In this document: piece by piece, positions 17,193 to 18,281 of the stretch
Numbering within the stretch: position 1 is the first letter of the stretch
Layout: every line of letters begins with the position of its first letter
DNA from: Promethearchaeota archaeon
GTDB lineage: Archaea; Asgardarchaeota; Lokiarchaeia; Sigyniarchaeales; SOKP01
DNA length: 64,000 bases
Direction: 5' to 3'
NCBI GenBank assembly: GCA_048939015.1
Contig: JBHLPW010000007.1
Span: 31,389 to 95,388, forward strand
The notes under the pieces: model-generated
What the model saw: the letters and a program-made list of their open reading frames with translations, nothing else
Databases searched by the model: none
What the model was told of the DNA's origin: nothing
Made by a program: the position numbers and the translations under genes

Positions 17193-18281
17193 TTATTTTT
17201 GATTTTTTAAATATTCATGCATCTCGACTAAAGTACTTGTTCTTATTAGAGCAGCTTTAAGAAATTGGAATCCTATATCGTAAGTTGATCCATCTCCTCC
17301 AATATGAATAAGATATGGCACTTTTCCTTCAAATAAGCCTTTTGCTTTACGTATTTTATAGGCTGTGCTTATCGCATCTGCCACCGTTGCACCAGACTCG
17401 AATAAATGATGAACCCAGGGAACGCGCCAAGAACTTACATTATCCTTTGAGGTTGAAACCTCTGAACATGATGTATTATTTACATAGATTATATTGTCAC
17501 CCGCAACTTTAGTTGCAGCTGTAGCCATTTGATTCAATACCATCCCTGCTCCACATCCAGGGCATAATCCATGACCGGGATGCAAGTGATTTTGTGGTTC
17601 TAATTCTTTTCGATTGATACGATAAATATCGACAGGTTTCTCTGCTCCAAATTGTTCAATCAATCCTTTTAATTTTCGATTTCTTTGTTCTGTATAATAT
17701 ATTATTTCATCAATTTCCTTTTCCATGAATTTTGGTTTAAATAGGTGTCTAAAACGTCCCATTGATTTCAAATATTCAACAAATTTATCTTTATCAATAT
17801 CTAATCCTCTATAATATGAGAAAGTAGGAACTCCATCCTTTACTCGAATTGTATATAATGGCCAATAGCCACAATCAGTTGCTAATTTAGAAATATTAAC
17901 CGAATCTTCTGCCGCATGTCTCCAGCCTCTCATACAATCAGAATAGGATTGAAGAAAAGAAGAACCATTTGTTTTTAAGGCTTCCATAACTTTTCCCATA
18001 AAATCATTTGGATAAGCAGGATTCAATGTTGCTAAAAAAAGTGAATTTGAACCGTAAAAAGCAAAAGGAGTAACCAAATCTTGTTTCACTCCAACTTTTC
18101 CAGGTATTTTTTCTCCAGCGGGTCCAGTTGTAGTAGATGCATGAGGTGGCGTTCCACCACTTTCTTGTATACCAGTATTCATAAATGCCTCATTATCATA
18201 ATTGAAGAACAATACATTAGATTTTCCTTCTTTTGAAAGTAAATCCGCCATTTTTATTATATTCCTTTCTGGTTGTGACAT
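17193..18281 (-). CDS. 2-oxoacid:ferredoxin oxidoreductase beta (TPP-binding) subunit, circularly permuted
   Basis: All beta-subunit blocks are present, but the canonical C-terminal half comes first: [12 protein letters not shown] res 28-39, CMRGW..GYWPLY res 116-143, [12 protein letters not shown] res 169-180. The canonical N-terminal half comes last: [13 protein letters not shown] res 234-246, [13 protein letters not shown] res 327-339. The start is coupled to the alpha stop (TAAGATG). Confidence 0.8.
   Translation of the reverse strand: [362 protein letters not shown]

Follow-up and report, generated by a model that had tools for sequence, protein, structure and literature searches.

The 64,000-nucleotide stretch of contig JBHLPW010000007.1 from a Promethearchaeota archaeon that was analyzed here (the window) carries an operon for a 2-oxoacid:ferredoxin oxidoreductase (OFOR). 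The gene for the beta subunit of this enzyme, a minus-strand open reading frame (ORF) at 17193-18281 encoding 362 amino acids followed by a stop, is confirmed by its alignments to be a true circular permutant of the PorB-type subunit that binds thiamine diphosphate (ThDP, also called TPP). The part of the chain that is C-terminal in canonical beta subunits (domain VI) comes first here and the N-terminal part comes last. Comparison of the sequences confirms that this variant topology of a known enzyme is real and conserved, and it has apparently been overlooked so far. We estimate at roughly 0.85 the probability that the gene encodes a functional permuted beta subunit of an OFOR and that the permutation had a single origin in an ancestral Asgard archaeon and was later inherited.

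The swapped order of the beta chain

The permuted order had been proposed in an earlier note on this DNA, which located characteristic beta subunit peptides at residues 28-56, 116-143 (CMRGW...GYWPLY), 169-180, 234-246 and 327-339. All of them are found at these residues, and 23 codons separate residue 339 from the stop. When the protein was compared by phmmer with all PDB chains, the PorB of Methanosarcina acetivorans (9bt4_C) was matched in two pieces (E 1.2e-47), its residues 5-115 by residues 228-347 of the protein and its residues 119-282 by residues 23-193. The beta subunit of oxalate oxidoreductase (5c4i_C) gave the same swapped pattern of two stretches (E 3e-43), and the NCBIfam PorB model was likewise matched in two stretches, with residues 18-197 falling on positions 116-289 of the 300 profile positions. 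With a canonical hidden Markov model (HMM), which we built from 38 canonical-order relatives, residues 226-351 correspond to HMM positions 9-124 and residues 20-205 to positions 121-293, and the permuted protein covers positions 9-293 of about 299. The E-values of the swapped alignments span 1e-47 to 1e-73, far beyond chance. This is the split that had been predicted, namely about residues 225-362 on the N-terminal part of the profile and about residues 1-215 on its C-terminal part. The earlier note had held a colinear full-length alignment to canonical beta subunits to be incompatible with its proposal, and none was found with the PDB chains, the NCBIfam PorB model or the canonical HMM.

Read from its new N-terminus, and with all coordinates on the minus strand, the chain begins with an extension of 19 residues (18225-18281) which is without counterpart in canonical beta subunits and is conserved within the family (ERNII..DLL). 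The canonical C-terminal half follows as residues 20-205 (17667-18224), as delimited by phmmer and the canonical HMM. It holds a beta-strand together with the second half of the GDG-X-N Mg-ThDP motif (residues 28-37 in the family alignment, 18171-18200, near the N-terminus), the fourth cluster cysteine Cys116 (17934-17936), which aligns with the fourth [4Fe-4S] ligand in the HAPCPTGW segment of 9bt4_C, and the GYWPLY and GRFRHL motifs. Residues 206-225 (17607-17666) form the junction that links the old C-terminus to the old N-terminus, as seen in the alignments and in the structural model. In the pairwise phmmer alignments 12-18 residues of it are left unaligned, a length close to that of the two canonical tails, C- and N-terminal, taken together (12-20). 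The canonical N-terminal half, again delimited by phmmer and the canonical HMM, comprises residues 226-351 (17229-17606) with GHGLCPGCG (C240, C243), NNTSCSEV (C272), the GDG stretch and the helix after it. The first half of the Mg-ThDP motif, G329-D330-G331 (17289-17297), thus lies 31 residues from the C-terminus. The chain is closed by a tail of residues 352-362 with the conserved pattern xxMNxYL (17193-17228 with the stop).

The breakpoint is located between the helix after GDG and the strand ending in D29-N30 and interrupts both the Mg-ThDP motif and the region that Pfam models as TPP_enzyme_C. Both new termini therefore fall within the GDG-X-N motif, as had been claimed, with GDG near the C-terminus and D29-N30 near the N-terminus. 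The chain shows what defines natural circular permutants, two segments in swapped order that are joined via the former termini. Homology over the whole canonical chain, four cluster cysteines and neighbouring alpha and gamma/delta genes place the protein among the OFOR beta subunits; a colinear topology, scores above curated thresholds and a contiguous Mg-ThDP motif are lacking.

Residue conservation was read from an alignment of 35 diverse members of the permuted family, down to 53% identity. The cluster cysteines C116, C240, C243 and C272, which align to the cysteines of 9bt4_C, are invariant in all 35, and so are G329-D330-G331 and, in the other half of the motif, D29, N30, E31, A32, N35, T36 and G37. 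The GDG and DN halves sit at opposite ends of the chain, so that the motif is not contiguous in the sequence; in the folded protein the two halves would meet in space and form one motif.

The AlphaFold2 (AF2) model of the permuted subunit, computed as a monomer from the family alignment, reached a pTM of 0.84 and a mean pLDDT of 75.9. In this model the new N-terminal extension forms a short strand (residues 6-10) and a helix (11-15), and the junction is spanned by a long helix (187-211) and the strand after it (212-221). A Foldseek search of the PDB with the model returned only OFOR and PFOR (pyruvate:ferredoxin oxidoreductase) structures, each matching over about half of the chain, for example with 121-128 aligned columns to the beta subunit of oxalate oxidoreductase at about 2 A rmsd and with TMq values of 0.30-0.40. 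Matches of half length are expected, because a sequential aligner is confronted with a permutant. From the beta-alpha-beta geometry the free chain ends would be placed at a helix-to-strand loop, on the sheet edge that faces away from the cofactor, and would not converge on the TPP site.

Distribution, selection and origin of the permuted gene

We compared the gene with its relatives in the NCBI, JGI, ENA and Logan collections. All 145 distinct full-length homologs (350-390 amino acids, 50-96% identical) are permuted when aligned to the canonical HMM, and they share the same conserved start and stop. The orthologs of identical order for which the earlier note had suggested a search are therefore at hand. 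In a collection with one genome per GTDB species 142 stretches encode a relative, and the best 80 of these are 77-94% identical over residues 1-362. A further relative (P0332), 54% identical and colinear with the permuted subunit, is encoded in the same operon on a closed chromosome of 6.27 Mb labelled Candidatus Lokiarchaeum ossiferum (Ca. L. ossiferum).

These numbers bear directly on the possibility that the swapped order is an artefact, in which a tandem duplication of a canonical porB was collapsed or joined chimerically in a single contig. Short-read assemblies of metagenome-assembled genomes (MAGs) can in principle collapse tandem repeats. However, the same permuted ORF recurs in the 145 proteins, the 142 stretches and the closed chromosome. 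Moreover the ORF is bounded on one side by the stop codon of the alpha subunit gene one nucleotide upstream, the sequence reading TAA-G-ATG as had been described, and on the other side by an AT-rich intergenic region without porB remnants. Mis-assembly at this locus, which had been named as an outcome that would speak against the permutation, is exceedingly improbable with more than 140 independent assemblies and a closed genome carrying the permuted order.

The second explanation to be weighed is that the gene is a decaying or noncatalytic copy and that a canonical PorB encoded elsewhere serves the alpha and gamma-delta subunits of the operon. In its favor it can be said that the other beta subunit of the window is of the KorB type and belongs with alpha, delta and gamma subunits of its own, and that one relative has a split beta gene. 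We determined dN/dS by the method of Nei and Gojobori against 14 orthologs and obtained, where dS could be estimated, values of 0.03-0.08; dS itself is near saturation. When the protein was compared segment by segment, dN fell clearly short of dS almost throughout, at the new termini and the junction as well, and for the N-terminal extension (residues 1-19) dN is likewise smaller than dS. Judged by these substitution rates, the permuted gene is shown to be under purifying selection and not decaying. The invariant cofactor and cluster ligands argue in the same direction, as does the position of the gene, always 3-9 nt downstream of the alpha subunit gene, and the fact that whole operons were duplicated and retained in one Helarchaeota MAG. 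A decaying copy, which the earlier note had likewise considered as fatal to its proposal, is contradicted as far as decay is concerned, and we regard this explanation as very unlikely.

The split gene just mentioned (P0271/P0272, Helarchaeota ACTSR3_09440/09445) consists of ORFs of 223 and 104 amino acids. Similarly, on the Helarchaeota contig L003 (6873-8004) the alpha subunit is called as two ORFs of 153 and 243 amino acids, while on the similar contig L004 (6769-8004) it is intact with 411 amino acids. The split alpha and beta ORFs are probably frameshift errors or cases of recent pseudogenization in single assemblies.

When 1.84 billion representatives clustered at 50% identity were searched exhaustively with HMMER, 1336 hits were obtained, and the order of the two halves was classified for the best 150. 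Within these 150, canonical order was found in 119 and most of the others are half-length fragments; the permuted order occurs only in P0121 (labelled Helarchaeota), P0122 and a few fragments of high identity. The nearest canonical PorBs in this set belong to clusters labelled Altiarchaeales and Bathyarchaeia and are 41-47% identical. When the permuted proteins were brought back into canonical order and compared with 46 canonical sequences, they formed one clade in 200 of 200 neighbor-joining bootstraps, and this monophyly indicates a single origin of the permutation. One Helarchaeota MAG contains two paralogous gamma-delta/alpha/permuted-beta operons (P0105 and P0121, with the same locus-tag prefix), from which it follows that the permuted architecture was duplicated and retained. 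We therefore picture that the permutation would have arisen a single time, in an ancestral Asgard archaeon of the Lokiarchaeia/Helarchaeales type, and would then have been inherited, and that whole operons would later have been duplicated into paralogs.

The labels of some assemblies would suggest a wider distribution. At ten loci the operon is present at 81-87% identity in assemblies labelled Hod-, Thor-, Hermod- or Odinarchaeota. The loci that were checked among these outlying labels have a GC content of 30-35%, similar to that of the window, and several share the M28 peptidase gene found upstream of the operon in the window. We consequently rejected a wide taxonomic spread or transfer and regard the labels as unreliable. 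An 82%-identical permuted beta subunit is also encoded on a contig labelled Candidatus Nanopelagicaceae bacterium (DATKTW010000155.1, 35% GC), in all likelihood an Asgard contig that was mis-binned.

Possible routes to the permutation

Both termini of the permuted protein align to the same four to five canonical positions (HMM 121-125), namely KSNVL at residues 20-24 and RTSTL at residues 347-351. This overlap, together with a junction about equal to the summed tails, speaks for a possible head-to-tail fusion of two gene copies. The earlier note had seen similar short segments at the two ends, and it is true that both ends share HMM positions 121-125. The N-terminal segment it had singled out, PERNIIKM (residues 4-11), is not the equivalent of ARRNVELT in the canonical paralog; the equivalent is rather K-EGKSNVL (about residues 17-24). 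Its further claim that the termini bear the footprint of tandem duplication and truncation finds no statistical support, since the extensions are without significant similarity in the comparisons given below.

Several observations weigh against the reading that we prefer. No significant relics of a second copy were detected when the N-terminal extension, the C-terminal tail and the junction were compared with the canonical alignment by hhalign (P of about 0.08-0.1, at unrelated positions), and a profile Smith-Waterman comparison of the terminal extensions with the would-be duplicated segments, evaluated with column shuffles, gave 0.30-0.46. A double-length B-A-B-A intermediate is not present among the best 150 of the 1336 representatives; the longer proteins in this set bear inteins or have N-terminal extensions. 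The AF2 prediction is a monomer model with a mean pLDDT of 75.9 in which residues 31-73, which we take to correspond to the cofactor-binding loop of canonical OFORs, are disordered or of low confidence. Finally, Pfam, including TPP_enzyme_C, gives no hits at E<=0.1 for the permuted subunit, and the NCBIfam PorB model reaches 212.9 bits where its cutoff demands 405, so that no curated model vouches for the protein. The missing Pfam match and the NCBIfam score below cutoff are explained by the position of the breakpoint inside the TPP_enzyme_C region and are expected for a permutant.

Without relics at the termini and without a double-length PorB-PorB protein in the set just described, a functional permutant could also have been formed by fission of the gene at the motif loop, reordering of the pieces and fusion, perhaps aided by an intein and without any tandem duplication. 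The closest canonical relatives, P0125 and P0133 among them, carry inteins. In P0125, from a cluster labelled Altiarchaeales and 47% identical, the intein is inserted at ...FTYV|C..intein..N|CYDNEA, only 3-7 residues from the breakpoint. On the other hand, inteins favor conserved motifs generally and the proximity may be a coincidence. The permuted subunit contains neither a Hint/intein domain (no Pfam hits at E<=0.1) nor intein blocks, and where proteins consisting of the C-terminal half only were checked, they turned out to be fragments at contig edges. In addition, the terminal overlap of four to five positions and the presence of both old tails in the junction are naturally predicted by duplication. 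We consider fission and fusion a possible but doubtful route. For the permuted subunit as such, whose functional reading is shared by both routes, the genetic history would accordingly have been either duplication, fusion and truncation or fission and fusion.

Two candidates that would have documented such a history were examined and rejected. Several representatives containing only the C-terminal half and starting exactly at the breakpoint resembled split-gene intermediates; we judge them to be edge fragments from the one cluster that was checked (P0213), in which there is a full-length member of 301 amino acids, its contig being 1.2 kb long. An intein remnant in the permuted subunit was dismissed for want of a Hint domain and of intein blocks; the terminal extensions of 19 and 11 amino acids are too short for an intein and are without the C...HN-type blocks found in P0125.

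Inteins of about 170 to 550 amino acids are present in many of the closest canonical PorBs (eight such proteins were noted), some with a LAGLIDADG-type endonuclease sequence. They occupy at least three sites inside GDG...YDNEAYMNTG, for example right after GDG and near YMNTG, and one protein (P0142) apparently has two. It would seem that inteins insert preferentially into the ThDP motif of PorB, an apparent hot spot that adjoins the permutation breakpoint.

One could go further and suppose that the permutation is not neutral: with both chain ends next to the Mg-ThDP beta-alpha-beta unit, and with a conserved strand and helix at the new N-terminus and a conserved C-terminal tail, it might alter the assembly, loading or regulation of the cofactor site in the main pyruvate/2-oxoacid oxidoreductases of the Lokiarchaeia, or it might be the record of an intein-mediated rearrangement at a motif that inteins frequent in the nearest relatives. 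We hold this to be unlikely. If it were true, the protein would be the first natural ThDP enzyme in which a signature motif built from the termini carries a functional or mechanistic consequence.

The operon, its neighborhood and known enzymes

The permuted gene is the last of three OFOR genes on the minus strand. Upstream of it lie the gene of the alpha subunit (18283-19512, 409 amino acids, POR_N and PFOR_II domains) and that of a gamma-delta fusion (19516-20514, 332 amino acids, POR domain III followed by a 2x[4Fe-4S] ferredoxin domain), both identified by their domain matches. The alpha gene is directly upstream of the permuted gene in 79 of 84 related loci, with a gap of 3-9 nt, the other five being cut by the contig end. 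The gamma-delta fusion is found upstream in 69 of the 84, the remainder not having enough upstream sequence. The closest solved relative of the alpha subunit is 9bt4_B (E 7.7e-55). The alpha subunit keeps the threonine of FPITPQT (aligned to Thr31 of PFOR), the glutamate of VESE and the arginine of ARA (aligned to Arg114); the roles of the counterparts of Thr31 and Arg114 and of the ThDP-activating glutamate are presumably those in the PFOR of D. africanus. We rejected an identity as oxalate oxidoreductase (OOR) because the alpha subunit has the PFOR-type threonine and not the arginine of OOR. Judged by this residue, oxalate is unlikely as a substrate.

We propose that the permuted gene product would be the functional beta subunit, binding ThDP and a [4Fe-4S] cluster, of a three-subunit OFOR of the POR or VOR type (acting on pyruvate or 2-oxoisovalerate), assembled from the gamma-delta fusion, the alpha and the beta subunit and with fold and chemistry as in canonical OFORs. 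The beta chain would be an intradomain circular permutant in which the old C-terminal half, a short structured junction and the old N-terminal half succeed each other, and the GDG-X(~25)-N motif would be assembled from both chain ends. ThDP would be bound between the PYR domain of alpha and the PP domain of beta, the 2-oxoacid would be decarboxylated and the acyl group passed to CoA, and the electrons would travel from the [4Fe-4S] cluster of beta via the two delta clusters to ferredoxin. The fold, the activity and a pyruvate-like substrate are thereby suggested by homology.

The genes around the operon are an M28 peptidase (20657-21904), an InhA-like MAM-domain protein (23088-25334) and an S8 subtilase (26057-27547), all on the minus strand, and on the other side of the operon an MFS_2 transporter (15546-16988, minus strand). 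A gene similar to the alpha subunit of ADP-forming acyl-CoA synthetase is located at 27908-29341. Such neighbors for the utilization of peptides and amino acids fit with a role of the OFORs in the fermentation of 2-oxoacids derived from amino acids. In Ca. L. ossiferum (CP163304.1), where the permuted operon is located within 3650814-3667923, a gene for a small GTPase of the Arf/Ras/Roc family precedes it by about 2 kb (3329-3880 of the extracted locus).

The window contains a second, canonical operon of the 2-oxoglutarate:ferredoxin oxidoreductase (KOR)/OFOR type, also on the minus strand, with gamma (34284-34862), delta (33807-34094), alpha (32669-33898) and beta (31781-32665) genes; its KorB-type beta subunit has the canonical order, as described in the earlier note. 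A flavoprotein of 790 amino acids, HdrA-like and fused to an MvhD/FlpD domain (29425-31797, minus strand), has a start that overlaps the final 17 nt of korB, and an electron-bifurcation partner cotranscribed with the KOR operon is thereby suggested. The third ThDP protein of the window is a canonical three-domain enzyme (TPP_enzyme_N/M/C, 573 amino acids, acetolactate-synthase-like, 36491-38212, plus strand) with a contiguous motif; it is adjoined by a gene for a protein with HEAT and leucine-rich repeats (35458-36432, plus strand).

Annotation pipelines pass the permuted gene over: PGAP calls its product a hypothetical protein, and this holds also for the closed chromosome labelled Ca. L. ossiferum. 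When the metabolism of Lokiarchaeia, archaea that are central to models of eukaryogenesis, is reconstructed automatically, POR or VOR may therefore be scored as incomplete. A whole clade that builds the ThDP signature motif from both chain ends would amount to an experiment by nature on how much the PP fold tolerates, and could serve studies of protein evolution and OFOR engineering. Ca. L. ossiferum is a cultured organism, and expression, termini, structure and activity are directly testable there.

We found no description of such an OFOR topology in the searchable literature, in agreement with the earlier note, and in searchable full texts circular permutation of ThDP enzymes is treated only at the level of domain order. 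A 2021 preprint says of the GDG-X(~30)-N motif that it "has been strictly maintained". In the known permutation of domain order (PP-PYR-TH3 in transketolase and dehydrogenases versus PYR-TH3-PP in decarboxylases and acetohydroxyacid synthase) the cofactor site is likewise kept, but whole domains are moved and the motif stays contiguous, whereas here it is the PP domain itself, and the motif within it, that is broken.

The intein-bearing PorBs such as P0125 and P0133 are the nearest sequences of canonical order, with the smallest distance to the permuted clade once its members are brought back into canonical order, and their chain is likewise interrupted within GDG...NTG. In these proteins, however, splicing presumably removes the intein and leaves a colinear PorB, while the permuted subunit has no intein sequence.

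The OOR of Moorella thermoacetica (5c4i), whose beta subunit is the second-best solved relative, has the same architecture of three genes (alpha, a fusion of domains III and V, and beta). The model for its delta subunit matches the gamma-delta fusion of the window, with residues 52-314 on positions 57-308 of 316. In contrast to the permuted subunit the beta subunit of OOR is colinear, and its alpha subunit has an arginine (YPIRP) where the alpha subunit here has a threonine (FPITPQT), a position whose role is known from the structures of OOR and PFOR.

The best solved relative is the PorB of M. acetivorans, with which the permuted subunit has in common the CxxC...C...C ligands, GDG, DNEAYMNTG, GxWPLY and GRFxHL; the YPITPQT and VESE motifs of the alpha subunit 9bt4_B have their counterparts in the alpha subunit here. 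Canonical four-subunit PORs encode gamma and delta as separate subunits, whereas the two are fused in the operon described here. Compared with 9bt4_C the two halves of the beta chain are swapped, and about 19 extra residues at the N-terminus and about 11 at the C-terminus have been added.

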